From: a virus
Direction: 5' to 3' (one strand)
DNA length: 64,000 nt
Virus record (IMG/VR): IMGVR_UViG_3300045988_053091
In this document: piece after piece, positions 6,579 to 22,928 of the stretch
Numbering within the stretch: position 1 is the stretch's first letter
How the letters are laid out: every line of letters begins with the position of its first letter
Position numbers and translations under genes: made by a program
Notes under the pieces: generated by a model
What the model saw: the letters and a program-made list of their open reading frames with translations, nothing else
What the model was told of the DNA's origin: nothing
The model's database searches: none

Positions 6579-6712
6579 AAAAATGTCCTATTTTAAATTT
6601 TTGTCTCCCTTATATAATATATTATACTATATATACTTAATAACTAGATATAGGTATATAGATATATAGTATTAATATATAAGGACGTAGAAAAATTAAA
6701 ATAGGACATTTT
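6579..6712. repeat. AT-rich element E1 with ~22-nt terminal inverted repeats (AAAAATGTCCTATTTTAAATTTTT ... AAAAATTAAAATAGGACATTTT)
   Basis: Arms 6579-6602 and 6691-6712 are reverse complements. Interior TATATA-rich. Homologous copy at 12042-12179. Confidence 0.8.
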
Positions 6713-12041: not shown

Positions 12042-12179
12042 AAAAATGTCCTATTTTAATTTTTTGCAAGTCTTATATATATTAATAATATATAGTCTAA
12101 TATTTATATAATTTAGATATATAGATTTAATATATAGTATTAAGTATATAAGGAGGTCAAAAATTTAAAATAGGACATT
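12042..12179. repeat. AT-rich element E2, homologue of E1 with terminal inverted repeats
   Basis: Arms 12042-12065 and 12159-12179 (AATGTCCTATTTTAA / TTAAAATAGGACATT). The interior shares TAGATATAT..ATATAGTATTAA.TATATAAGGA with E1. Confidence 0.8.
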
Positions 12180-12413: not shown

Positions 12414-12430
12414 GTTGATAGAACTAAAAT

Positions 12431-12501
12431 TCACCTATGATGAAACGGTATCATGACTGGCTGTTAACCAGTTCTTGTAGGTTCAAGTCCTGCTAGGTGA
12501 G
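12431..12501 (+). tRNA. tRNA-Asn (GTT)
   Basis: Hand-folded cloverleaf: acceptor TCACCTA/TAGGTGA, anticodon arm ACTGG-CTGTTAA-CCAGT, T-loop TTCAAGT. Confidence 0.85.
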
Positions 12502-12592
12502 TTGCTAGTCAAGATTACTTGGTTAGCAGATTCGTGTTTGTTAATAGCATGATAACCTCCCTCTTCCCCAAATTTAGGGAGGTTCCACCTTT

Positions 12593-12664
12593 TGTCAGGT
12601 CGTCTAACAGGTAGGACATAACTCTTTGGAAGTTACGATACAGGTTCGAACCCTGTCCTGACAG
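12593..12664 (+). tRNA. tRNA-Gln (TTG)
   Basis: Acceptor TGTCAGG/CCTGACA, D-stem GTCT/GGAC, anticodon arm TAACT-CTTTGGA-AGTTA, T-arm ACAGG-TTCGAAC-CCTGT. Confidence 0.9.
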
Positions 12665-12737
12665 TTGTACAGTTACGGCTGTACAAACTATGTTTCTATG
12701 TTATAATGGTTGTAGGCTTTTAGAGACATCTCTCTTA

Positions 12738-12773
12738 CCCCTGTTTAATTACAGGGGTTCCCTTTTTGTTTTT
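12738..12773 (+). terminator. intrinsic terminator
   Basis: CCCCTGT/ACAGGGG stem followed by TTCCCTTTTTGTTTTT. Confidence 0.7.
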
Positions 12774-12799
12774 GGAAGGTTACTCAAATGGTTAAGGAG
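12774..12799 (+). pseudogene. 5' fragment (acceptor strand plus D-arm) of a tRNA-Ser gene
   Basis: GGAAGGTTACTCAAATGGTTAAGGAG is near-identical to the first 26 nt of tRNA-Ser(GGA) at 20144. There is no anticodon arm, T-arm or 3' strand after it. Confidence 0.6.
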
Positions 12800-12807
12800 T
12801 GTTTAAC

Positions 12808-13386
12808 TTGGTATCAGCCAAAGATATTGCAAACAATGACAACATCAGAATGCAATTACAGGAGTTGTTAAACTCGAATTTGTCAAAAGTATCAATAGCT
12901 AGAGAACTAGGTTGTACTCCGAAAACTTTAAATAAAGCTTTAAAAGATATGGGTATTAACTACAACTTTTATAAAGCTGTATCCGGTAATAATGGAAAAT
13001 CTAAAATATGTAAAGTGTGTAAAAAGACTAAACCCTTATCTGATTATTACATGTCGGGTTCCGGTAGACAGCTTAATACATGTAAACCTTGTGTTCGTGC
13101 TGAGGAAAAGCTAAAATATGCTAGTAAGCTTAGGTCTTTTAACGATTATAAATCAAGTATCGGATGTCAAAAATGTGGAGACACTAGACATTACGTTTTA
13201 GACTTTCATCATAAAGACCCTAATGAGAAGGAGTTTACTTTAGCTGATAAAGCAAGGGCTTCATTTCTTAATGATGAAGTGCAAAACGAAATCAAGAAAT
13301 GCGTTTTGCTGTGCTCAAACTGTCACAGAGAATTTCATTATTTAGAGAGAACATCAGGTATAACTATTACAGAATATCTTTCATAA
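12808..13386 (+). CDS. HNH homing endonuclease with N-terminal HTH
   Basis: LDFHHKDPNEK...CVLLCSNCHREFHY HNH motif plus two CxxC pairs. TTG 12808 lies 8 nt after AAGGAG (the track start GTG 12799 overlaps that RBS). Confidence 0.8.
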   Translation: MVSAKDIANNDNIRMQLQELLNSNLSKVSIARELGCTPKTLNKALKDMGINYNFYKAVSGNNGKSKICKVCKKTKPLSDYYMSGSGRQLNTCKPCVRAEEKLKYASKLRSFNDYKSSIGCQKCGDTRHYVLDFHHKDPNEKEFTLADKARASFLNDEVQNEIKKCVLLCSNCHREFHYLERTSGITITEYLS

Positions 13387-13414
13387 AAAAATCAAAAAAA
13401 CTTACAAAAAGGTG

Positions 13415-13443
13415 TTTACAACTTTGTAATGTTATGCTATATT
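13415..13443 (+). promoter_or_regulatory. promoter of the large non-coding RNA locus
   Basis: TTTACA, 17-nt spacer, TGCTATATT. The 16-mer GTTATGCTATATTAGT is identical to 21161-21176. Confidence 0.65.
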
Positions 13444-14025
13444 AGTATTACACCACAAGTTAGTGGTTAAAAATTGAAAACTTAATAGATTTTGAACCTA
13501 GTGCAGAAAGTTTGAACAGCTTGCTAGGATAACGTGGCGTGAATCTGGATGTAACCGAAGGTGCGATAGTGCTTTGGGTTGCAGGTAGGTCTTATGGTGA
13601 CATAGGAGTAACTATTAGTAAAAGCTAATATCAGTTAAGCGTTATGTGGAGTATACATGGATTGTAAGGTACAAGACTCTTGGGGGATACAATAGACGTT
13701 CCTGTGGAAAAGAATCCAAGTTAGGTGGAAGTGTGAGAAGCTTGGCAGACCTTGGAAAACTCAAAAGACTCCCTTTGACGAGAACTGTAGAAATACAGGT
13801 TTAACAAGAGACCTTGGTACAAGTAGCTTAAGTCAGCTTTTGATGAAAATATTATAAAAGACATAAGGATATATGTTCATTAATACTTTTAATAGCTGAA
13901 TGTTTAGGTGAACGTTGTTAGCCACCGTGCTAGACCATACATTAAAGGCAGAGAGAAGCTATCGGGTAGCTCCCGATGGTTCAGCCTCTCTGAGTATGTG
14001 ACCGAATGCAGTGAGTGTATATGAA

Positions 14026-14068
14026 GCAGGAAGAAAAGCCCTTAATCTATTAAGTTTTGAGTTTTTAA
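14026..14068 (+). repeat. 43-nt direct repeat, copy A1
   Basis: GCAGGAAGAAAAGCCCTTAATCTATTAAGTTTTGAGTTTTTAA, identical to 14527-14569. Confidence 0.95.
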
Positions 14069-14428
14069 ACATGTCACTGTGGCGGAAGTAGAAAATGCTA
14101 TGGTAGTAAACCTGTTATGAGTAGTTTTTATCTATTAAGTTAACACTTTAATAGGCGTGAGTGGGGCAGTACCACTCCAGTGACTTAAAGAACCTACGGA
14201 AACAATCAATCTTATCGGATGCCGATTGGTTGGCTGAATTAAGCAGTGTGTCTGCGAATCAGTTAATAGGCATAAAATACTAGCACAGACGTGTGCCGCT
14301 CTCAGGTGTAGGTTAGGAGAGAAACATTAGCAACCGAGGGTTGGAAATGGGCGCTCAAAGTACACGAGCAAGGCGATGTCGGTAGTAATCGACGGAATCG
14401 GTGTAGGTTGCTTGATAGAGCTATAACT

Positions 14429-14455
14429 GCATCTCGTTTATGAGATGTGTTTTTT
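14429..14455 (+). terminator. intrinsic terminator
   Basis: GCATCTC/GAGATGT stem followed by GTTTTTT. Confidence 0.7.
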
Positions 14456-14497
14456 ACAGATTAAATCATTCTAAGAGTGGTCTTTTTATCTTACATA

Positions 14498-14526
14498 AAG
14501 GAAAGAATTTTCTCCTTATTATTTTT
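14498..14526 (+). terminator. second terminator-like hairpin
   Basis: AAGGA..TCCTT stem then ATTATTTTT; resembles the terminator at 15223. Confidence 0.45.
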
Positions 14527-14569
14527 GCAGGAAGAAAAGCCCTTAATCTATTAAGTTTTGAGTTTTTAA
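14527..14569 (+). repeat. 43-nt direct repeat, copy A2
   Basis: Identical to 14026-14068; lies 16 nt upstream of the next tRNA-like gene. Confidence 0.95.
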
Positions 14570-14585
14570 CCAAACTTGTATTACT

Positions 14586-14657
14586 GCGGAGATGCTGAAC
14601 GGTTTAGGCACTTGACTCATAACCAAGCTTTAGTGGGTTCGACTCCCACCTACCGCA
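14586..14657 (+). tRNA. tRNA-like, anticodon CAT (Met/Ile2 type), imperfect acceptor stem
   Basis: Good T-arm GTGGG-TTCGACT-CCCAC and loop CTCATAA, but the acceptor GCGGAGA/CTACCGC pairs at only 4 positions plus a wobble. Confidence 0.45.
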
Positions 14658-14784
14658 ATAGGAACCGCAGAGTGGTAAATTGGTATTCCACTCGTACAAT
14701 TTATTGTCTTGAACAATAATGTATAACCAAAAAAACTCACGTAGACGTACGAATCCCCTAGGTGGCGGTGGTTGGGGAAACATT

Positions 14785-14859
14785 GGGCTATTGGAGCAGT
14801 CAGGAGTGCTCGTCTCCCTGTCACGGAGAAGGTCATGGGTTCAAGTCCCATATAGCTCG
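14785..14859 (+). tRNA. tRNA-Asp (GTC)
   Basis: Acceptor GGGCTAT/ATAGCTC, D GAGC/GCTC, anticodon arm TCTCC-CTGTCAC-GGAGA, T ATGGG-TTCAAGT-CCCAT. Confidence 0.9.
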
Positions 14860-14864
14860 TTTAT

Positions 14865-14936
14865 GGCGCATTGGTCAAGCGGTCAAGACACCGGTCTTTC
14901 GAACCGGAATCGAGAGTTCGACTCTCTCATGCGCTA
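14865..14936 (+). tRNA. tRNA-Glu (TTC)
   Basis: GGTCAAGCGGTCAAGACA D-region typical of Glu, anticodon arm CCGGT-CTTTCGA-ACCGG, G1.U72. Confidence 0.85.
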
Positions 14937-15143
14937 TTATTCATTATTATTTTCTCTTTTATTTATTCTGTTTATATCTTAAAACTATCATTATTGGAAA
15001 GGAGGCATATGGACATGCCTAAGAAATTTATTACTCTCTCAGTCACATTTATTAAACAATTATGGCACTCAACACTAGTATCATATGCCTCCCTTTCTGG
15101 GACTATATGACTTACTAAGGTTTATTTCGTGGTATTATTACAC

Positions 15144-15216
15144 GGACTATTAGCTCAGTAGGTCAGAGCCGTCAGCTCATAACTGACAGGTTTGGGTTCG
15201 ATTCCCAAGTAGTCCA
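15144..15216 (+). tRNA. tRNA-Met (CAT), elongator or Ile2 type
   Basis: Acceptor GGACTAT/GTAGTCC, D GCTC/GAGC, anticodon arm GTCAG-CTCATAA-CTGAC. Confidence 0.9.
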
Positions 15217-15222
15217 TTTTTT

Positions 15223-15252
15223 TAGGGAGAAATATTTCTCCCTATTATTTTT
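15223..15252 (+). terminator. intrinsic terminator
   Basis: TAGGGAGAA/TTCTCCCTA stem then TTATTTTT. Confidence 0.75.
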
Positions 15253-15262
15253 ATAAAAAGTG

Positions 15263-15291
15263 TTGACTTTCGGTACAACACATGATACTAT
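15263..15291 (+). promoter_or_regulatory. sigma-A-type promoter
   Basis: GTGTTGACT, 17-nt spacer, TGATACTAT. Confidence 0.65.
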
Positions 15292-15301
15292 AAGTTTACA
15301 A

Positions 15302-15343
15302 GGTAAGCAGTAAGGGCTTGTAAGGTTCGAATCCTTAATTACC
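15302..15343 (+). other. tRNA minihelix-like element (acceptor-like stem plus T-arm, no anticodon arm)
   Basis: GGTAA...AAGG-TTCGAAT-CCTT..TTACC, immediately downstream of a promoter. Confidence 0.35.
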
Positions 15344-15428
15344 TCTTCCACTTTTAATAGTGGTATGTTTTAATCTCTCATTATCTTACATTTTTCGGAG
15401 GGTTGTTAGTCCCTCCCCTCCGAATCTT

Positions 15429-15500
15429 GCGCTGTTGGTGTAGTGGCTATCATTTCCGGCTCCAACCCGGAAGACGGGGGTTCGAATCCTTCACAGCGTG
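15429..15500 (+). tRNA. tRNA-Trp (CCA)
   Basis: Acceptor GCGCTGT/ACAGCGT (G1.U72), anticodon arm TCCGG-CTCCAAC-CCGGA, T GGGGG-TTCGAAT-CCTTC. Confidence 0.85.
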
Positions 15501-15740
15501 TATTCTTGGACAGCGGTGATAGTTATAGTGTACTATCCTTCACAGGAACGAATTACTGGTATGTAGCACTCTACTGGTAATTGTTGAAGAATGTGACGTG
15601 TTTACAAGAGTAAAGTCATCTAAGGCAGTGTTGCCGAGTCTAGGTTCTGATAGCGCAGGTGTAAAGCAGACTAGTGCCCTGTTTTCACTTATCAGTTTAT
15701 GTGAGTCCCGATGCAGATAAAAACCTAGAGGGATGCTAAT

Positions 15741-15813
15741 GCGGGAGTAGCCAAGTGGGTTAAGGCTAGGGATTGCAAACCCCTGAACGTGAGTTCGAAT
15801 CTCACCTTCTGCT
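15741..15813 (+). tRNA. tRNA-Cys (GCA)
   Basis: Acceptor GCGGGAG/CTTCTGC (two G.U), loop TTGCAAA, T GTGAG-TTCGAAT-CTCAC. Confidence 0.8.
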
Positions 15814-15934
15814 TATGACATAAATCTGACTTGTCATCAGATTTTTAGTACCTGTACTCATTTTTGGGTATCCACACTTCAAAGGCATAGGACTTATCTT
15901 AGTAACCACGTGGGGGATAAGTCCAAATTGACAC

Positions 15935-16008
15935 GGAGAGGTAGCTCAGTAGGTTAGAGCACTAGCCTGAAAAACTAGGGGTCGGTGGTTCAATTCCACC
16001 CCTCTCCA
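15935..16008 (+). tRNA. tRNA-Phe (GAA)
   Basis: Acceptor GGAGAGG/CCTCTCC, anticodon arm CTAGC-CTGAAAA-(A)CTAG, T GGTGG-TTCAATT-CCACC. Confidence 0.9.
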
Positions 16009-16025
16009 TTCTATTGAGGGGTTAC

Positions 16026-16097
16026 GCTGATTTAGTATAACGGCTATTACTCCGGCTTTGTAACCCGGGAATGGGAGTTCGATTCTCTCAATCAGCA
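16026..16097 (+). tRNA. tRNA-Thr (TGT)
   Basis: Acceptor GCTGATT/AATCAGC, loop TTTGTAA, T GGGAG-TTCGATT-CTCTC. Confidence 0.85.
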
Positions 16098-16202
16098 TTG
16101 TGAGCGGAAACTCACAAATTAATGTTTTGAATGATTGGCTAGTTATCTGGTTAGTTAGTGCGAACATTGCATACAATTATCTATATAGAATTTTATCAAT
16201 AA

Positions 16203-16277
16203 GCTAGTTTTGTGTCTAGTGGTCTATGTGAGCTTCATAACCTCATGGCGGTTCGATTCCGTAAGGCTTAACTAGCT
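16203..16277 (+). pseudogene. non-canonical tRNA-like element with CAT anticodon loop
   Basis: Acceptor GCTAGTT/AACTAGC and loop TTCATAA are fine. The D-stem is weak and 6 extra nt sit between the T-stem and the 3' acceptor strand. Confidence 0.35.
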
Positions 16278-16289
16278 ATTGGTAATCTT

Positions 16290-16363
16290 ATCTCCTTAGC
16301 TCAGTTGGTGGTAGCACCTGACTCTTAATCAGGGGGTCACAGGTTCGAATCCTGTAGGGGATA
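16290..16363 (+). tRNA. tRNA-Lys (CTT)
   Basis: Acceptor ATCTCCT/AGGGGAT, anticodon arm CCTGA-CTCTTAA-TCAGG, T ACAGG-TTCGAAT-CCTGT. Confidence 0.85.
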
Positions 16364-16365
16364 TT

Positions 16366-16439
16366 CTCGAAGAGTTGGTGTATGGCTTTGGTAACACGCC
16401 TCTTAGGAGGAGCAGGCAGTTCAAATCTGTCAGTCGAGA
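16366..16439 (+). pseudogene. tRNA-like element with aberrant anticodon arm (CCTC-TTAG-GAGG)
   Basis: Normal T-arm GGCAG-TTCAAAT-CTGTC and 5 acceptor pairs, but the anticodon region folds as a 4-bp stem with a tetraloop and reads TAGGAGGAG. Confidence 0.3.
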
Positions 16440-16497
16440 CCCTTAGTTTTTCTATTAGTAACGGTTTTTCGAGAGGGTTATCTTGAAAAACACAACT

Positions 16498-16571
16498 GTC
16501 TTCATAGCTCAATCGGCTAGAGCACTCGACTTTTAATCGAGGGGTTCGGGGTTCAAGTCCCTGTGGAGACA
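16498..16571 (+). tRNA. tRNA-Lys (TTT)
   Basis: Acceptor GTCTTCA/TGGAGAC, anticodon arm CTCGA-CTTTTAA-TCGAG, T CGGGG-TTCAAGT-CCCTG. Confidence 0.9.
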
Positions 16572-16600
16572 TTGGCTAGTACATTGTTACTAACCTAGAG

Positions 16601-16673
16601 CGACAGTTCGTTCAATTGGATAGGATGCTAGACTACGAATCTAGTGATAGAGGTTCGATTCCTTTACTGTCGG
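16601..16673 (+). tRNA. tRNA-Arg (ACG)
   Basis: Acceptor CGACAGT/ACTGTCG, anticodon arm CTAGA-CTACGAA-TCTAG. Confidence 0.9.
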
Positions 16674-16680
16674 TTAGCAT

Positions 16681-16783
16681 ACGGGAGTGGCGTGTAGGGC
16701 ATACGCACCTGTTAGTTCAGGCAGAGGTTAATAATTCATGAATAAACCCTCGAATATCGTAGGTTCGAATCCTACCTTCCGTA
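16681..16783 (+). pseudogene. 103-nt Leu-like tRNA-like element with 6-nt anticodon loop and oversized variable arm
   Basis: Acceptor ACGGGAG/CTTCCGT, D GCGT/ACGC and T GTAGG-TTCGAAT-CCTAC are good. The anticodon region CCTG-TTAGTT-CAGG is 3 nt short, and the variable region is about 36 nt with an internal palindrome ATTCATGAAT. Confidence 0.4.
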
Positions 16784-16789
16784 TAAAAT

Positions 16790-16823
16790 GCGGGTGTCAG
16801 AGGTTCAAATCCTCTCACTGGTA
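16790..16823 (+). other. tRNA minihelix-like remnant (Leu-like acceptor strand fused to T-arm)
   Basis: GCGGGTG-TC-AGAGG-TTCAAAT-CCTCT-CACTGGT. Confidence 0.35.
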
Positions 16824-16929
16824 TTTGCCTTAATTGGAAAACTATGACCTGTCGTTAGTTTACGTCTTACACTTTGGTGAAGAAACGTTTTTCGGGAGGT
16901 AGCTTTTATATATGAATGGAGGGGCAATT

Positions 16930-17349
16930 ATGACATATAAAGTGTTACACGGAGAGGACAGTTTAGCGCCTCTGCTATGGACATTTTTTATTAGAGAAGG
17001 TCTATCCGTGTCAGAAACAGAAAGTTATAAATGTGTTGGTCAACGAGGACTAAATGCAGATTATGTTCCACATGAATTAAGCCTTGATACACCTGTTATC
17101 TTTTATGAAATGAAGAGTACTGTAGTATTTAAATGTGTTAACGGTGTGCAGGAAAAAACACCTTGTTTATTTTTTGATACATCCGAAAAAACTTGTTGTA
17201 TTACGGAAGAACTATATGATATTCTTGAAGAACTATATGGAACTGATATTTATTTCCTAGCTAAAACACTTGACCCAGAATTAGCATTGTCCTCCGTTTA
17301 TTCAGAAGGTTGGTTATCTACTTTTATAGAGTTGAGACAGCAGGTTTAG
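16930..17349 (+). CDS. hypothetical protein
   Basis: ORF track; start moved to the second ATG, behind a GGAGGGG RBS. Confidence 0.55.
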   Translation: MTYKVLHGEDSLAPLLWTFFIREGLSVSETESYKCVGQRGLNADYVPHELSLDTPVIFYEMKSTVVFKCVNGVQEKTPCLFFDTSEKTCCITEELYDILEELYGTDIYFLAKTLDPELALSSVYSEGWLSTFIELRQQV

Positions 17350-17424
17350 CACACAATAATAAGGAGTGGTTCCTGTGAAGAAAGTATTGTCTAAATTGTA
17401 AGTATCTATTAAGGAGGACTTACA

Positions 17425-17676
17425 ATGAGTAGAAGTTACAGAAAACCCTATTACCGTTATGTTTGTATGAAGGACTCAACTATTCGAGACATAAAAAGAA
17501 TGGTTAACAGAAATTACAGGCATAAATTAAATCAAGGTCGTTTTGATGACGAAGTAACATTGACACATCATAAACGAGTAGAAGAAACTTGTTGGACATA
17601 TGACATGAAAAAATTCTATGCCCACGAGGATGATTACAAGAATAATAATTTTTATCAGAAATTGAGAAGAAAGTAG
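17425..17676 (+). CDS. hypothetical basic protein
   Basis: ORF track 83 aa; AAGGAGG RBS. Confidence 0.6.
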   Translation: MSRSYRKPYYRYVCMKDSTIRDIKRMVNRNYRHKLNQGRFDDEVTLTHHKRVEETCWTYDMKKFYAHEDDYKNNNFYQKLRRK

Positions 17677-17684
17677 GTAATATC

Positions 17685-17906
17685 TTGAAAGCAGACTATG
17701 TAGTTGCAGAAGACTGGGAAGGTATTTATCTTGATGATAAACTTCAAATAGAAGGACACAGTATACAAACAGCAGAAGCAATGAAACTTACTATTGAAAA
17801 TGAAGTAACGGAGTTAACTGTTTACGAGATTGACCAAGAGTACATGAAAGAGCTAGGTTCTCTACCCGAAAGTTTCTCTCAATTAGATTCATCAAAACTT
17901 TTTTAA
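17685..17906 (+). CDS. hypothetical acidic protein
   Basis: ORF track 73 aa; TTG start. Confidence 0.5.
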   Translation: MKADYVVAEDWEGIYLDDKLQIEGHSIQTAEAMKLTIENEVTELTVYEIDQEYMKELGSLPESFSQLDSSKLF

Positions 17907-17925
17907 ATAAATTTCTATGTAAGTG

Positions 17926-17954
17926 TTGACTTTCCTTACAAGATGCTGTATAGT
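17926..17954 (+). promoter_or_regulatory. sigma-A-type promoter for tRNA-His unit
   Basis: GTGTTGACT, 17-nt spacer, TGTATAGT; the -10 lies in the loop of an 11-bp hairpin (17932-17969). Confidence 0.65.
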
Positions 17955-17977
17955 AATTCTTGTAAGGAACACATGAT

Positions 17978-18049
17978 GGTGACTGTAGCCTAATGGTAAG
18001 GCAGTGTTCTGTGGAAACATGAATCTCAGTTCGATTCTGAGCAGTCACA
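17978..18049 (+). tRNA. tRNA-His (GTG) with encoded G-1
   Basis: G-1 then acceptor GTGACTG/CAGTCAC, anticodon arm GTGTT-CTGTGGA-AACAT. Confidence 0.9.
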
Positions 18050-18226
18050 TAAGGTTACACTTTTCCTTACTAGATTAACTTGTCCGAAAATTTTGAGGAA
18101 ATACTCTTTTAGCCTCTTTTTCGTTAAAACATATCTTAACCCATTCATAAGAAAAATGTTGATATATAAAGTGGTATTTTTCCAGAAGTGAGAAATCATA
18201 AGTAATCTAGTTTAAAAAGTGATTAT

Positions 18227-18311
18227 GCGAGAGTGTTGGAATTGGTAGACATGTGGCACTTAGAATGCCATGCCTGTGATGGGCGTGAGGGTTCGAATCC
18301 CTCCTCTTGTA
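18227..18311 (+). tRNA. tRNA-Leu (TAG), class II
   Basis: Acceptor GCGAGAG/CTCTTGT, anticodon arm TGGCA-CTTAGAA-TGCCA, long variable arm, T GAGGG-TTCGAAT-CCCTC. Confidence 0.8.
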
Positions 18312-18543
18312 TTAGGTCAACGGAAATTGACCTTTACGTTTTACATGGTTAAGTAGTTTACGTAATGAAGACTGTCCTGTTAGATTTAAGTAAAATACTT
18401 AGGTTAAAGACCGGAACAACTTACCCTTATAGTCCGGTGGTGGAGACGTTACATTTTCCGTAACTCATTTTCATTTTTTAATTGTATACTTTTGATTAGA
18501 CCCTGCCGGAAGGGTAGGGTTAGTCAAAAGAAATTCTTATGTT

Positions 18544-18891
18544 GGGGCTGTTTTGGTTTCGACTGGCGTAAGGAGTATATGAATAGCGGGCAGAGTGATG
18601 ACTTAATCATCGCAGTAAATATAACTGCTAAAAACGAAGAATTATTAGCTGTAGCCTAGTTTTAGACTAGCTACACACTTACCCCTCTAGACTAGGGTCG
18701 GTTCTACCTAGAGGACTCATTAACCGACAACGCTGAGGTAAAAGTGGATAACTCAGGAGAGGCTTTACCACTCAGTTAAGGTAATTTCAGTTATTAGTTG
18801 TAACCTTAACGTAGATTAAAACTAGTAACTACGCCCGTAGAATTTTGTATGGTTCTACGTCAACACAGGGGTTCGATTCCCCTCAGTTCCA
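18544..18891 (+). ncRNA. ssrA: tmRNA (SsrA), phage-encoded
   Basis: The 5' end GGGGCTGTTTTGGTTTCGACTGGCG and the 3' end AGGGG-TTCGATT-CCCCT-CAGTTCC-A form the tRNA-like domain. Internal tag frame is GCT AAA AAC GAA GAA TTA TTA GCT GTA GCC TAG (AKNEELLAVA), 18627-18659. Confidence 0.8.
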
Positions 18892-18896
18892 TTTTG

Positions 18897-19619
18897 TTAT
18901 TTTATATATGACCAACGGTAGCCACATGAAGTGGTTCTGCCCTCATAACCATGTACTGCTCTTGTTATATTACTAGTAGAAGTTCCGATGTATTCTGAGG
19001 CTTCTCTAACAGAATCAAATTCTTTTATAACAACAGAGGTGTCCTTATCAATCATAGCTATTCGTTTCTTTTTGGTTGATGACTCTGTAGCTAACTTTCT
19101 CATAAGTTCACTATATCTTTTAGACTTTTCGGGATTGTCATAAGCTTTAGCAGATGTAGGTAGGTCATAGTCTTTACACCATTTTTTAATAGCGTTTGAG
19201 GATACACCATAGTAGCTAGCGACTTTACTAAAAGAATCAAGCATTAGCTGATTGTAAAGCTTGTCTCTAGTTACACCATATTTTAATTCACGTTTCTTAT
19301 TAATTTCTTCTTTTGAAAGACCATTGCGTGAAGTGATTATCTGGTTGTAACCATTACCAATAGAGTTATACTTTGCAATATACTTGTTCTCGATAGAATT
19401 AAGTTCCGAATGGTTCGGTACAACTTCTAGGATTTCAAATATGAAGTTTTCCATTCCGTGTTTTCTAAATGCACGGTGTAGGGGAGTTTCGTAATCAGTA
19501 GCATTAGTATTAAAAGTACTATGTCTGTGTTCGTTCCACCTACGTTCAATATCCTTTGATTGTCCTACGTAGTGTCTATTGTTAACAATATTTGTAATTA
19601 AGTAAATTCCTTGTGTCAT
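18897..19619 (-). CDS. GIY-YIG homing endonuclease
   Basis: GIYLITNIVNNRHYVGQSKDIERRWNEH.. GIY-YIG core, with C-terminal helix-turn-helix-like repeats. Start moved to ATG 19619 behind an AAGGAG RBS; TGCTATATT -10 motif at 19653-19661. Confidence 0.85.
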   Translation of the reverse strand: MTQGIYLITNIVNNRHYVGQSKDIERRWNEHRHSTFNTNATDYETPLHRAFRKHGMENFIFEILEVVPNHSELNSIENKYIAKYNSIGNGYNQIITSRNGLSKEEINKKRELKYGVTRDKLYNQLMLDSFSKVASYYGVSSNAIKKWCKDYDLPTSAKAYDNPEKSKRYSELMRKLATESSTKKKRIAMIDKDTSVVIKEFDSVREASEYIGTSTSNITRAVHGYEGRTTSCGYRWSYIK

Positions 19620-19666
19620 GTTGTAAGTCTCCTTTTTATATGTTATACTTACAATATAGCACAAGT

Positions 19667-19698
19667 GGAGTTGTAGGGTTCAATTCCCGTCAGCTCCA
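19667..19698 (+). pseudogene. decayed duplicate of the tmRNA 3' end (T-arm plus acceptor strand)
   Basis: GGAGTTGTAGGGTTCAATTCCCGTCAGCTCCA parallels 18860-18891. CAGCTCC complements the tmRNA 5' end GGGGCTG, but the T-stem keeps only 3 pairs. Confidence 0.5.
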
Positions 19699-19862
19699 TA
19701 GACTGCCTTTGTCAAGCAGTCGAATCCTATCTAATTTTTTCATTAAATAAATATCGAATTGTGGCTGATTTCTACGGATTCAGAGCGGAGCATCCCCGCA
19801 GGTTGGGCATACTACAGTCCCCCCCATGATGCTTCATGGGTTATACATAATAAGGAGGTAAC

Positions 19863-20048
19863 ATGATGTATTTAAAATTCATTGGTTTAAACGGAAGTTT
19901 AGGTTTAGTGAAGGACAAGATATACTTTGTTACCTCTGAGATACATGAACATTATATTATTTTGAGAATACATGGTGTTCACGGTAAGACAGTAATGTGT
20001 CCGTACGAAGCATTAGAAAAAGTGTTAGAAAATTGGCAGGTCTGTTAG
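19863..20048 (+). CDS. hypothetical protein
   Basis: ORF track 61 aa; strong TAAGGAGG RBS. Confidence 0.6.
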   Translation: MMYLKFIGLNGSLGLVKDKIYFVTSEIHEHYIILRIHGVHGKTVMCPYEALEKVLENWQVC

Positions 20049-20143
20049 TATGCAGATAGTAGGGTGTGCATAAAGCCTAGGGAACAACATGCACAGAAGA
20101 TTAGGTATTGTGTACTTGACACAAACCCGCCTGCTCCCAAGAC

Positions 20144-20230
20144 GGAAGGTTACTCAAACGGTAAAGAGGCTTGGTTGGAAACCAAGTAGATGTGTAACAG
20201 CATGTGTGGGTTCGAATCCCATGCCTTCCA
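20144..20230 (+). tRNA. tRNA-Ser (GGA), class II
   Basis: Acceptor GGAAGGT/GCCTTCC, anticodon arm CTTGG-TTGGAAA-CCAAG, long variable arm, T GTGGG-TTCGAAT-CCCAT. Confidence 0.9.
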
Positions 20231-20326
20231 TTTGAAATATAAACTACTAAAGCTGTTTAAAGAGTTCGGTTTAAGTAGTTCCGGTTGGCTAGTCAACTAA
20301 CAGTACTAGTCAATCAATTTCTTTTT

Positions 20327-20413
20327 CGAGGAGTATCATAACTGGAAAAAATTGACTCTTGAAAAGTCATAGACGTGTAAAAGCGTTTGGGGGTTCGAGT
20401 CCCTCCTCCTCGG
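20327..20413 (+). tRNA. tRNA-Ser (TGA), class II, D-stem essentially unpaired
   Basis: Perfect acceptor CGAGGAG/CTCCTCG and anticodon arm TGACT-CTTGAAA-AGTCA. The D region TCATAACTGGAAAAAA has no stem. Confidence 0.6.
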
Positions 20414-20439
20414 TTCATTAAAGATAATGGAGGCTAATC

Positions 20440-20808
20440 ATGAGTTTTCGTAAAGGTAAACACAAGGAGCCTTCTAAGTGGCAAAGATTTATTAAATCAA
20501 TCATGGAAGTAGAAGGTGAAAACATGGAGGACACATTGTTTGAAAAAGCTTTTGATTCTTGGAAAGCAGGAGATAAAAGTGAAGAGGTACAACGAGTTTT
20601 ATTAGATTCTGGTTTAGAGCAGTATAAAACTGGTGGTAAGTATAATGTGGATGCTGTTAGAGAAATCTGTGAGAAAGCCCATAAAGGTGAGACTGTTTAC
20701 AGGAAAGACAAGCATATCTTACAAGATTTCTATGAATGTTTAGAATGGGAAAACTTCCATACTGAAATTGAAGCAATTGAATTGTTTACAGGAGTATCCT
20801 ATATATAG
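20440..20808 (+). CDS. hypothetical protein
   Basis: ORF track 122 aa; GGAGG RBS. Confidence 0.6.
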   Translation: MSFRKGKHKEPSKWQRFIKSIMEVEGENMEDTLFEKAFDSWKAGDKSEEVQRVLLDSGLEQYKTGGKYNVDAVREICEKAHKGETVYRKDKHILQDFYECLEWENFHTEIEAIELFTGVSYI

Positions 20809-20837
20809 TCATATTTATAAATTAGGGGGTAGTTGTT

Positions 20838-21002
20838 ATGAAATACACAGTTAAAAAAGGTGACACATTGTATTCTATTGCTAGAAAATATTATGGCAAG
20901 CCTTGGTTATGGAGACTAATTTGGTTACATGGTCAGAATAGGAATATTAAAGACCCTAATAAAATTAGAATTGGTCAAACAATTTATCTTCCGTTTAAGT
21001 AA
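20838..21002 (+). CDS. small LysM-domain protein (54 aa)
   Basis: Not in the track (under 60 aa). ATG behind a GGGGGT RBS. YTVKKGDTLYSIARKYYG...IRIGQTIYLP is a LysM motif. Confidence 0.55.
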   Translation: MKYTVKKGDTLYSIARKYYGKPWLWRLIWLHGQNRNIKDPNKIRIGQTIYLPFK

Positions 21003-21006
21003 GTAT

Positions 21007-21079
21007 ATCTCCGTAGGCTAATTGGATAAACCACAGGATTTCTAATCCCGCATTCTGAGTTCGAATCTCAGCGGAGGTG
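21007..21079 (+). tRNA. tRNA-Arg (TCT)
   Basis: Acceptor ATCTCCG/CGGAGGT, loop TTTCTAA, T CTGAG-TTCGAAT-CTCAG; one mismatch in the anticodon stem and a weak D-stem. Confidence 0.7.
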
Positions 21080-21087
21080 TTTTATAC

Positions 21088-21120
21088 GGGGCATTAGCTC
21101 AGTTGGGAGAGCGCTACCCT
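21088..21120 (+). pseudogene. 5' half of an Ala-like tRNA (G3.U70) ending two nt into the anticodon loop
   Basis: GGGGCAT-TA-GCTC-AGTTGGG-AGAGC-G-CTACC-CT. Confidence 0.65.
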
Positions 21121-21934
21121 ATTTAAATTATTTTTTAGCCAATTCGAACACTAAGATGTAGTTATGCTATATTAGTGTTCGAAGAGGTGGAAAGTATGGT
21201 TAAAGTAAGTAAAGTTTACAGTGTAAGTGATGAAGATTTTAAGCTAGTTGTTGCTAATTCTAACACAATCACAGATATTCTTTGGAAGTTAGGATACAGT
21301 AAATCTTCTGGAACAGGTAACGCCAGAAATTTAATCAAAAAGCGGATAGCTGAACTAGGCATTACCTTCCAGTCACAACCAGTCAAATCTAGCAGAATGT
21401 CAGACGAGAGCTTTTATGTTAAAGGAACTTATCGTAGTAACCTACGAGTAAGAGTTCTACAAGATGGTTTCTTAGAGTATAAATGTTCGGAATGTGGTAT
21501 AACTAGTACTTGGAACGGTAAACCGTTAACTCTACAATTAGACCACGTTGACGGGGATGCTACAAATAATGAAAAGCCGAATTTACGATGGTTATGCCCT
21601 AATTGCCATACACAAACAGAGACGTATGGGTCAAAGAACAAAGGAAGCACAAGGACTAAGCATAGAGGAACTTATGGTGAACGAGAATGTAAGTATTGCC
21701 ATAAAATGTTTACTGCCAAGAACAGAGAATCCATGTTCTGTAGCGGGCAGTGTTCTGGTAAAAGCCGTAAGAAGACTCCACCTGTTTCTAAAGAAGACCT
21801 ACTAGCTTTGTTAGAAAAGGAGTCATTTTTGTCAGTGGGTCGTAAGTTTGACGTTTCAGATAACACTGTACGTAAATGGTGTATGCGTTATGATATACCT
21901 AGTAAGTCTTCTTATTATAAAAAATAATTTAAAT
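21121..21934 (+). mobile_element. 814-bp HNH-endonuclease insertion in the tRNA anticodon loop, bounded by a perfect 16-nt inverted repeat
   Basis: ATTTAAATTATTTTTT (21121-21136) and AAAAAATAATTTAAAT (21919-21934). Only about 82 nt are non-coding. Confidence 0.7.
21196..21927 (+). CDS. HNH homing endonuclease
   Basis: LDHVDGDATNNEKPNLRWLCPNCHTQ HNH motif with flanking HTH-like regions. ATG 21196 behind a GAGGTGG RBS. -10 TGCTATATT at 21165-21173 sits between 12-bp inverted repeats. Confidence 0.85.
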   Translation: MVKVSKVYSVSDEDFKLVVANSNTITDILWKLGYSKSSGTGNARNLIKKRIAELGITFQSQPVKSSRMSDESFYVKGTYRSNLRVRVLQDGFLEYKCSECGITSTWNGKPLTLQLDHVDGDATNNEKPNLRWLCPNCHTQTETYGSKNKGSTRTKHRGTYGERECKYCHKMFTAKNRESMFCSGQCSGKSRKKTPPVSKEDLLALLEKESFLSVGRKFDVSDNTVRKWCMRYDIPSKSSYYKK

Positions 21935-21971
21935 AAGGTAGATGTCAGCGGTTCAAGTCCGCTATGCTCCA
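21935..21971 (+). pseudogene. 3' half of the Ala-like tRNA
   Basis: AA-GGTAG-ATGTC-AGCGG-TTCAAGT-CCGCT-ATGCTCC-A; GGTAG pairs with CTACC of the 5' half. Confidence 0.65.
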
Positions 21972-22028
21972 TAGCTGTACTCTGCGCAAGGTGCAGTGAA
22001 TTTAGTTACCTAGCTAGAAATTAAATAG

Positions 22029-22095
22029 GTATGCGTAGCTTAAGTGGATAAAGTGACCTATGAAGTAGATAGGGGTTCAAATCCCCTCGCATATC
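22029..22095 (+). pseudogene. short (67-nt) tRNA-like element lacking a normal anticodon arm
   Basis: Acceptor GTATGCG/CGCATAT, D GCTT/AAGT and T AGGGG-TTCAAAT-CCCCT, but only 16 nt lie between the D- and T-arms. Confidence 0.35.
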
Positions 22096-22260
22096 ATTAG
22101 GATTGGTCATCCTTGTTCAGGGTTGCAAACCTGTAACAGAATACGAGGTGAATTAACACCATATTGGGCGTTACCCTAGATTCCTGTCAAATCTATTGGT
22201 ACGGTAACTAGACTAGGTGTGTGTAATCGGAAGATGACAGGTACACAAGCCTATCCAATA

Positions 22261-22337
22261 GGACAGTGTTACACGGGTTCGATTCCCGTCCTGCGGGTTG
22301 TCCCTGCGGGTGGCTGAATGGTTAAAGCACACTGTCC
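22261..22337 (+). ncRNA. circularly permuted tRNA-like RNA domain (YrlA-type tRNA mimic candidate)
   Basis: 8-bp closing stem GGACAGTG/CACTGTCC, 4-nt variable, T-arm ACGGG-TTCGATT-CCCGT, 8-bp acceptor-like stem CCTGCGGG/CCTGCGGG (G.U-containing) capped by TTGTC, then TG and D-arm GCT-GAATGGTTAA-AGC. Confidence 0.5.
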
Positions 22338-22372
22338 CGAATGGATAAATTAAAAAAACTTACAAATAGTTG

Positions 22373-22400
22373 TTGACAGCATGTAAGTTTGTGTTATAAT
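22373..22400 (+). promoter_or_regulatory. sigma-A-type promoter for tRNA-Pro unit
   Basis: TTGACA, 16-nt spacer, TGTTATAAT. Confidence 0.7.
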
Positions 22401-22415
22401 GTATGTATAAGTTAA

Positions 22416-22488
22416 CGGGAAATAGCGCAGTTGGTAGCGCACACGCTTTGGGAGCGTGGGGTCGTAGGTTCAAGTCCTGCTTTCCCGA
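22416..22488 (+). tRNA. tRNA-Pro (TGG)
   Basis: Acceptor CGGGAAA/TTTCCCG, anticodon arm CACGC-TTTGGGA-GCGTG, T GTAGG-TTCAAGT-CCTGC. Confidence 0.9.
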
Positions 22489-22661
22489 TTAGAAGTTTAG
22501 TTGGTGGGCAACAGTAAAACCCAATATTCAAACTTCTATAACAAATATCCTTGGTTAAAATGAGTCCTAGCTCAACTCTAGGCAAGGTATTATGGAGTTA
22601 ATAGGAGAATGACAAGACAGGAATGATACTTCGCTGTCGGGTACCCGCCTATTAACATTAT

Positions 22662-22732
22662 GTGGATTTAGTATAAGGGTAACATCTTTGGCTCTCAACC
22701 AAAGGGTGCGGGTTCGAATCCTGCAATCCATA
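22662..22732 (+). tRNA. tRNA with anticodon CTC (Glu by anticodon)
   Basis: Acceptor GTGGATT/AATCCAT (G1.U72), anticodon arm TTTGG-CTCTCAA-CCAAA, T GCGGG-TTCGAAT-CCTGC; D-stem weak. Confidence 0.7.
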
Positions 22733-22928
22733 TATTCGTATCGCCTTGCGCCTCTTAATATGCGTACCAAGGGTGGTCTATTGGGTTGTATGTAGGCATT
22801 GTGTATATAAGACTAGTCACGTGTGAGGCAATACTAGTTGAAGTTATACAATGTACCCCATTAATACACTATGAGAGCTACCTCACTAAAAGTTTTTGTA
22901 CATTGTATTGATATATACATACTTATAC

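Follow-up and report, generated by a model that had tools for sequence, protein, structure and literature searches.

ROOL RNAs, described as a family in 2017 by Weinberg et al. (PMC5737381), are among the largest structured RNAs of bacteria and phages and build cages that consist of RNA only. The cages, including that of an Enterococcus member, have been seen by cryo-electron microscopy (PMC12286853, PMC12990946, PMC12248019), and the Enterococcus structures are available as PDB 9ISV, 9J3R, and 9J3T (listed in PMC12248019). The ROOL cage is homo-oligomeric, being an octamer for the Enterococcus and env-120 members (PMC12286853, PMC12990946), and it contains a disordered, non-conserved linker (PMC12286853). 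In some members of a second family, GOLLD, a transfer RNA (tRNA) is embedded in the variable region (PMC12990946). Here, we describe a locus at positions 13415-14455 of the IMG/VR virus record IMGVR_UViG_3300045988_053091. The whole analyzed stretch of 64,000 nucleotides (nt) is called the window, and all coordinates refer to it. The locus, which lies within the tRNA island of a Schiekvirus, probably represents an operon of non-coding RNAs in which a ROOL RNA is followed by a captured cassette of smaller structured RNAs.

The Rfam ROOL model RF03087 (gathering score, 99.1 bits) matches 13473-14059 on the + strand with 267.9 bits (E value, 3.9e-60) and over its whole length (model positions 1-574 of 574). 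With the full closing helix, P1, the ROOL gene occupies 13464-14071 (+), and it almost certainly encodes a full-length ROOL RNA. An earlier reading of the same DNA, made without database searches (here, the sequence-only reading), had proposed a ROOL- or GOLLD-class RNA and had pointed to the ROOL-like size of the domain closed by a long-range helix; the full-model match identifies the RNA as ROOL. A permissive Rfam scan of 13380-14800 (E ≤ 10) yielded only ROOL, a weak tRNA, and chance-level matches, with none to GOLLD, OLE, HEARO, group I/II introns, or RNase P. The family motifs ACAAUAGACG, GGUACAAGUAGC, CUGAAUG, and GUGAA and the GNRA-capped hairpins agree letter for letter with the RF03087 alignment. 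P1 is formed by 28-nt arms (13464-13491 and 14044-14071) that are 89% complementary, and its inner part is the perfect 15-base-pair (bp) long-range helix (13477-13491 with 14044-14058) that the sequence-only reading had pointed out. All the hairpins listed in that reading are likewise present in the sequence; those at 13591-13606 (GTGA loop), 13785-13798 (GAAA loop), and 13949-13992 are ROOL consensus hairpins.

A consensus fold was computed with RNAalifold from four sequences (the window, EfV12-phi1, phiEF17H, and Sw5). In this small sample, which comprises two genera of Enterococcus phages, the fold has 189 pairs, 12 of which show compensating changes on both sides between the genera, about 5 of them in P1. 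The sole part of ROOL that does not align between the genera is an AT-rich variable linker at approximately 13838-13893 (+). It sits in an unstructured loop of the RF03087 model and is the counterpart of the disordered, non-conserved linker of the cage. The ROOL part is thus an ordinary member of the known family, which it resembles in its full-length model match, conserved motifs, P1, variable linker, and length (about 590-610 nt), and also in being part of the tRNA island of a phage.

The locus is 99.8% identical to that of Enterococcus phage Porthos (Schiekvirus), and the window is assigned by its sequence to an Enterococcus Schiekvirus (Herelleviridae, Brockvirinae). Its tRNA island comprises 20 tRNA and transfer-messenger RNA (tmRNA) genes at 12430-22733, in keeping with the usual setting of ROOL in phages or prophages, frequently beside tRNA genes. 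EfV12-phi1 (260 bits) and phiEF17H, a Kochikohdavirus (265 bits), both carry a member of the ROOL family at the corresponding position. Between Schiekvirus and Kochikohdavirus, conservation (89%) is confined to 13472-14069; because this segment alone is kept between the two genera, it marks the limits of the functional RNA. The ROOL locus carries no ROOL annotation in public phage records, and a literature search found no paper tying ROOL to "Enterococcus phage."

An extended -10 promoter of the sigma-70 type (TTTACA, 17 nt, TGcTATATT) lies at 13415-13443 (+), as the sequence-only reading had proposed, and was recovered by our scan with 10 of 12 matches and with the TG present. The scan counts speak against promoter-like sites as a class being a signal (5 found in the region, 7.2 expected by chance). 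However, phiEF17H has an equivalent promoter (TTGACA/TGcTATTAT) at the same distance from ROOL, the -10 element ending 29 nt before the start of the ROOL model and 30 nt before it in the window, and the promoter sequence is also kept in the Schiekvirus relatives. The call is therefore better backed by its equal spacing in two genera than by the scan statistics, and transcription is inferred to start near 13450. No promoter-like site was found by the scan on the + strand between 13443 and 15200. At the other end, an intrinsic terminator at 14428-14455 (+) consists of a 9-bp stem (14428-14449; hairpin energy, -9.0 kcal/mol) and six T residues. This is the first of two terminators that had been proposed for the locus; the second, at 14498-14526, is weak (-3.2 kcal/mol) and was missed by the scan. 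The region is also free of long open reading frames (ORFs), as noted earlier, the longest on either strand of 13387-14629 having 52 amino acids (aa). The GC content of the locus (0.37-0.465) exceeds that of the upstream flank (0.275-0.335), in line with the contrast claimed in the sequence-only reading, but the downstream tRNA region is equally GC rich.

That reading had treated the kilobase between promoter and terminator as a single RNA. Our comparison does not support this: P1 closes ROOL at 14071, and what follows is missing in most relatives and is found in temperate phages with no ROOL beside it. The remaining ~400 nt up to the terminator are a separate mobile cassette. Of the matching Schiekvirus records, 7 contain the insert and span 1274 nt at this locus, and about 24 span 773 nt, a difference of exactly 501 nt. 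The segment 14072-14526 (455 nt) is an insertion; in most sister phages, ROOL runs straight to a weak tRNA(CAU) gene. This gene, at 14586-14657 (+), scores 35.5 bits with Rfam, has two acceptor-stem mismatches, is passed over by ARAGORN, and is labeled "tRNA-Pseudo-CAT" in the Porthos record but tRNA-Met or tRNA-Ile in those of relatives. Homologues of the insert among isolated phages were limited to the 7 near-identical Schiekvirus records.

After the insert, the final 46 nt of ROOL, which contain the P1 3' strand, are repeated (14527-14572, +; 98% identical to 14026-14071). This direct repeat, overlooked in the sequence-only reading, is interpreted as a recombination scar. The distal copy is 93% complementary to the 5' arm (13464-13491) and the proximal copy 89%, with pairing energies of -30.0 and -23.6 kcal/mol, respectively; the distal copy pairs better because the proximal P1 arm has lost junction pairs (AAACA for AACCA). 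Short-form phages have a single 46-mer, of the distal type. In EfV12-phi1, 14068 is joined directly to 14570, so that one 46-mer and 13 nt precede the weak tRNA(CAU), whereas the Porthos-type order is ROOL, insert, second 46-mer, and tRNA(CAU). Two carriers differ at the right end. CCS1 jumps from 14497 to 14644. In EFP01, the insert is followed by a jump to window position 15226 via a repeat of about 27 nt (14500-14526 resembles 15226-15252), apparently by recombination between the two copies that deleted the tRNA(CAU)-Asp-Glu-Met block. The ~27-nt repeat itself is a terminator-like intergenic element. A transposon or miniature inverted-repeat transposable element was considered and rejected: the insert lacks terminal inverted repeats, and the 46-nt flanking repeat is a ROOL copy and not a target-site duplication.

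The likely origin of the cassette is indicated by viral contigs. Exact matches to the 19-mer at 14160-14178 were found in 17 IMG/VR contigs, most of them 8-45 kilobases long, and matches to the 19-mer at 14075-14093 in 81; in a scan of species-representative genomes, 7 of 8 matches were in Enterococcus. Contigs of temperate phages and prophages jointly cover 14061-14511, that is, the whole cassette. Locus L058 aligns with 14061-14329 (79%) and L089 with 14186-14331 (88%); 14324-14412 is matched with 94-96% identity in five loci, and 14454-14502 with about 82% in some 39. Where contigs were examined, the homologous arrays fill a non-coding gap of 0.4-1.1 kilobases between a late activator gene of the ArpU/RinA type (phrog_36, phrog_248) and the terminase genes terS/terL. 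Their modules are 3-5 nt apart, as in tRNA clusters; the units are repeated one after another, accompanied by real tRNAs, and have the same orientation as the neighboring genes. Many arrays end in a common terminator, GATCACTCATTGAGTGGTC plus a T run, directly before the ribosome-binding site (RBS) and ATG of the first late ORF. Scans of 14 donor contigs found neither ROOL nor any other Rfam family at the gathering score, and a permissive Rfam scan of three donor-type regions returned only tRNAs and a chance-level match to the abiF RNA motif (L049 11410-11446, +; 22.3 bits, E value of 0.25, below the gathering score). Among isolated phages, only short stretches similar to a donor-type array were found, all of them unannotated, in a few phages of Enterococcus and Listeria.

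A remnant of the array terminator and RBS is found in the window at 14454-14511 (+), of which only the 3' half, GAGTGGTCTTTTTAT, is well preserved. Because this degenerate copy was kept with no ORF behind it, the direction of transfer is best read as temperate to lytic, and the cassette was very probably captured from a temperate Enterococcus phage.

Some Enterococcus temperate arrays also contain predicted suppressor tRNAs, at L038 4685-4762 (-), L080 2441-2517 (-), L047 2130-2207 (+), and L040 2174-2250 (-). Three have the anticodon UUA (reading UAA), and that of L040 is UCA (reading UGA). Other arrays have "gutted" versions with the same acceptor ends, GACGTG...CACGTC.

The first module of the cassette, the tRNA-like unit M (14073-14184, +), starts 1 nt after P1 and has homologues in at least 81 viral contigs. 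GTCACTG and CAGTGAC form its closing stem of 7 bp, which encloses a D-arm-like segment, a variable middle, and a hairpin whose 6-bp stem carries a T-loop-like loop of 7 nt and directly adjoins the 3' closing strand CAGTGAC; the hairpin at 14159-14177 of the sequence-only reading is this T-arm-like hairpin. The same plan holds for 51 distinct units: GTCACTG-TG-GCG[11 nt]CGC, a middle segment 40-110 nt long, the 6-bp stem and its 7-nt loop, and then immediately CAGTGAC. The middles are wholly different and non-homologous between units. The scaffold, in contrast, has 98.4% of its cells paired, compared with 27-44% when the partners are slid, and four of its pairs are changed on both sides, with none of 500 shuffles reaching the observed score. 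The T-like stem is GAGTGG/CCACTC or GCAAGG/CCTTGC (three compensated pairs), and in one unit the closing stem is compensated to GTCGCTG/CAGCGAC. The loops co-vary as well: TTCGATT goes with the D-like GGGTAGA and GGCAGTA-type loops go with GTAGAAGA, independently of the middle, and two 88-nt units share a middle while differing in the D-like/T-like loop pair. That the loop types switch together is what a tRNA-style elbow contact would predict. A covariance model built from M recovers it with 54.3 bits (E value, 5e-13) as the only strong match in the window, the next being the T arm of tRNA-Phe, and has 131 matches in the fetched loci, often two in tandem. The changes trace to few independent events, and the sample was picked by exact 19-mers of conserved blocks, which hides variation in those blocks; the secondary structure of M, as drawn from these alignments, is supported but not proven.

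M resembles a tRNA in its 7-bp terminal stem, in the U at position 8, in the 3- to 5-nt linkers, and, for some sister units, in the canonical TTCGATT loop; the terminal stem may in addition stack on the stem that carries the 7-nt loop, and the D-like and T-like loops, whose types change together, may be in contact. It differs from a tRNA in that the T-like stem has 6 bp instead of 5, the loop in the window is GGCAGTA and not the T-loop consensus, and no CCA is encoded; in place of an anticodon arm with a 7-nt loop, which is lacking, there is the non-homologous segment of 40-110 nt. Related uses of tRNA-like elements as processing signals or scaffolds are mascRNA at the 3' side of MALAT1 and the engineered "tRNA scaffold" RNAs. 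Within the middle of M, 14127-14141 is a third copy of the core of the ROOL P1 3' strand (14 of 15 identical; TTTATCTATTAAGTT versus TTAATCTATTAAGTT), which can also pair with the ROOL 5' arm (20 nt, 85%); the homologous unit in the temperate-phage contig L055 lacks its TTAAGTT part. A second, degenerate ROOL copy in the insert was considered and rejected, since only a P1-arm-like 15-mer is similar and no ROOL match was obtained at E ≤ 10.

The middle module, N' (14191-14314, +), has a closing stem, AACCTACG/TGTAGGTT, around three or four hairpins. The earlier hairpins at 14214-14226, 14243-14255, and 14283-14296 belong to it, and the last two covary. With its homologues in L058 (79%) and L089 (88%), N' yields a consensus of 32 pairs, 3 of which are changed on both sides among the three lineages. 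The last module, N (14329-14412, +), has near-invariant ends, AGCAACCGAGG ... GTGTAGGTTGCT, in which AGCAACC is complementary to GGTTGCT, around a variable G-rich interior. Copies 94-96% identical to it exist in L033, L036, L060, L065, and L068; the abiF-motif match in L049 lies between a module N and the array terminator. The 30 distinct N units share their ends and have non-homologous interiors, and their closing stem is invariant, so that no covariation signal is possible. M, N', and N match no family in Rfam 15, and no public phage record that contains a piece of the cassette annotates it. Single-sequence folding was not decisive (folding-energy z-scores of the insert were -1.98 on the + strand and -2.99 on the - strand, and the minimum-energy fold of the full 1-kilobase transcript mixes the modules), and we therefore relied on comparative evidence. 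The covariation in M and N', the joint switching of loops, and the packing at 3-5 nt are the reasons for regarding the cassette as structured RNA.

Based on these observations, we propose the following scheme. ROOL and the cassette would be transcribed together, from about 13450 to 14455, from the ROOL promoter. ROOL would fold first, like the solved Enterococcus ROOL, and assemble into a homo-oligomeric cage, as expected from its family (PDB 9J3T; PMC12990946, PMC12248019). M, placed 1 nt after P1, could then serve as a processing signal for RNase P and RNase Z, giving ROOL a defined 3' end and freeing the modules as separate stable small RNAs; such processing at M is suggested by analogy and is put forward only tentatively. 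In short-form phages, the tRNA(CAU) could take the same role in ROOL processing. The cassette would have moved from a temperate phage or prophage to the lytic phage by illegitimate recombination, and in long-form phages the terminator at 14428-14455 should lower transcription into the downstream tRNAs.

Several points weigh against this scheme. Co-transcription, processing, and terminator efficiency are all inferred from sequence. At E ≤ 10, M has no match to any Rfam tRNA, tmRNA, or tRNA-like family, and ARAGORN is silent; the sister units in L049 and L040 likewise have no Rfam tRNA or tmRNA match at that threshold. The label "tRNA-like" is therefore based on topology and on a small number of covariation events, in essence one subtype switch of the T-like stem and one compensated pair of the closing stem. 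In phiEF17H, a spacer of 113 nt separates ROOL from the first tRNA, so that a tRNA-type element abutting ROOL is not universal, and the rule that ROOL is always abutted by one, which we had considered, is ruled out. Finally, the insert is at least 98.5% identical across all 7 carriers, and EFP01 and CCS1 have lost different parts of its 3' end. Given this near-identity and variable deletion, selection for the cassette in this phage is no more than putative.

The last point leads to the most serious alternative, namely, that the 455-nt insert is a hitchhiking fragment of a temperate-phage leader, neutral in its new host, with folds kept by virtue of its recent arrival. Its near-identity among carriers points to a recent acquisition. 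The duplication scar at its flank, the useless remnants of the donor terminator and RBS, the unlike deletions at the right end, and the fact that most sister phages do without it also favor this alternative. However, the three modules and the terminator, which is predicted to work, are intact in all carriers, the deletions in EFP01 and CCS1 spare both, and the module types are kept by compensatory changes across many temperate phages, so that they are functional RNAs somewhere. We consider the neutral alternative rather unlikely, although it keeps a real share of the probability.

A second alternative returns to one large ornate RNA, in which 14072-14455 would be an integral 3' domain of an enlarged ROOL; as one option, read-through transcripts would use the distal P1 3' strand (14545-14572) to close this RNA. 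The single promoter and single good terminator that flank the whole stretch would suit such an RNA, as would the greater stability of the distal arm with the 5' arm. Against it, the match to the whole ROOL model already ends at 14059, and P1 is closed before the insert, which is missing in about 24 of 31 Schiekvirus records and in all Kochikohdavirus ROOL loci; moreover, the modules exist without ROOL in temperate phages, a terminator stands between the proximal and distal arms, and EFP01 and CCS1 carry the insert without the distal arm. This alternative is very improbable. No more credible is the view that the insert, instead of RNA genes, is a decayed protein gene or a site that acts as DNA, such as a cos/pac, attachment, or recombination site: its conserved 25- to 30-bp blocks around variable segments do resemble the recombination "linker" sequences of mosaic phages, and the temperate arrays precede terminase genes, a place where cos sites may be found, but the stems are preserved by compensatory base changes, the units are arranged in tandem with real tRNAs and in the orientation of the neighboring genes, the lytic phage keeps its copy in a tRNA island, with an RNA gene on one side and a terminator on the other, no ORF exceeds 52 aa, and nine stop-free frames of 30-63 aa in the insert gave no match in PHROG or Pfam.

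A ROOL RNA followed by a captured cassette of structured RNAs thus remains our preferred reading, and its architecture is that of a ROOL variant in which a cassette comes after P1 and the 3' arm is present twice. It departs from known ROOL loci in that, in 7 phages, a 455-nt cassette of structured RNA is joined to the 3' end and followed by the duplicated last 46 nt, and in that the proximal P1 is short of one or two terminal pairs at the junction. With GOLLD it shares the character of a large phage or prophage RNA near tRNAs, and GOLLD provides a precedent for a cage-forming RNA physically linked to a tRNA-type element; unlike in GOLLD, to which there is no match at E ≤ 10, the tRNA-like unit comes after the closing helix and is not embedded. 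On the donor side, the abstracts of PMC3753634 and PMC3152322, which deal with temperate phages of Gram-positive bacteria, describe protein activators of the RinA/ArpU superfamily that work at the late promoter region. The donor arrays occupy exactly this kind of late-operon control region, between an ArpU-like gene and terS/terL and with a terminator before the first late gene. The difference is that those abstracts describe protein activators, whereas structured RNA arrays are present here. Neither our literature searches nor Rfam 15 contained a structured RNA array in the ArpU-terS/terL position, and tRNA-like arrays next to arpU were not found described.

The module families M, N', and N are accordingly the only potentially new element of the locus. 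A speculative generalization, which we regard as doubtful, is that all three are undescribed phage non-coding RNA families of one design, with near-invariant paired ends around a hypervariable interior. M would then be a natural "tRNA scaffold" with interchangeable cargo in place of the anticodon region, such units would form processed arrays with suppressor tRNAs in the late-gene leader of temperate Enterococcus phages, and one such array would have been fused to the 3' end of ROOL. On this view, a cage-forming RNA and a tRNA-like cargo would arise from one precursor and might be coupled via processing, tethering, or encapsulation. Separately, the cassette points to an unannotated modular class of RNAs, absent from Rfam 15, that is located in the leaders of late genes in temperate Enterococcus phages and includes tRNA-like scaffolds with hypervariable inserts beside predicted suppressor tRNAs. 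The locus provides natural, nearly isogenic pairs of lytic Enterococcus phages, in which ROOL is followed either directly by a tRNA-type gene or by the captured cassette. Such pairs are a tractable system for ROOL 3'-end formation, for a possible functional tie between ROOL and the tRNAs that accompany it, and for any effect of an appended RNA on cage assembly.

Further features were noted around the locus. Directly upstream of the ROOL promoter, an ORF of 195 aa (12799-13386, +) encodes an HNH endonuclease (phrog_2255, 2e-31). Porthos lacks 12789-13313 and hence this ORF, and EfV12-phi1 and CCS1 have a tRNA-Ser gene at the site; the ORF looks like a homing-endonuclease insertion that replaced a tRNA. 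A phage-encoded tmRNA lies within the tRNA island at 18544-18894 (+; Rfam, 124.9 bits), and ARAGORN predicts the tag AKNEELLAVA* for it. Lastly, an element of about 135 nt occurs at 6579-6712 and 12045-12179 with about 80% identity. It matches itself in both orientations and is thus palindromic, and its second copy is located in a very AT-rich stretch (GC content, 0.19) just upstream of the tRNA island.

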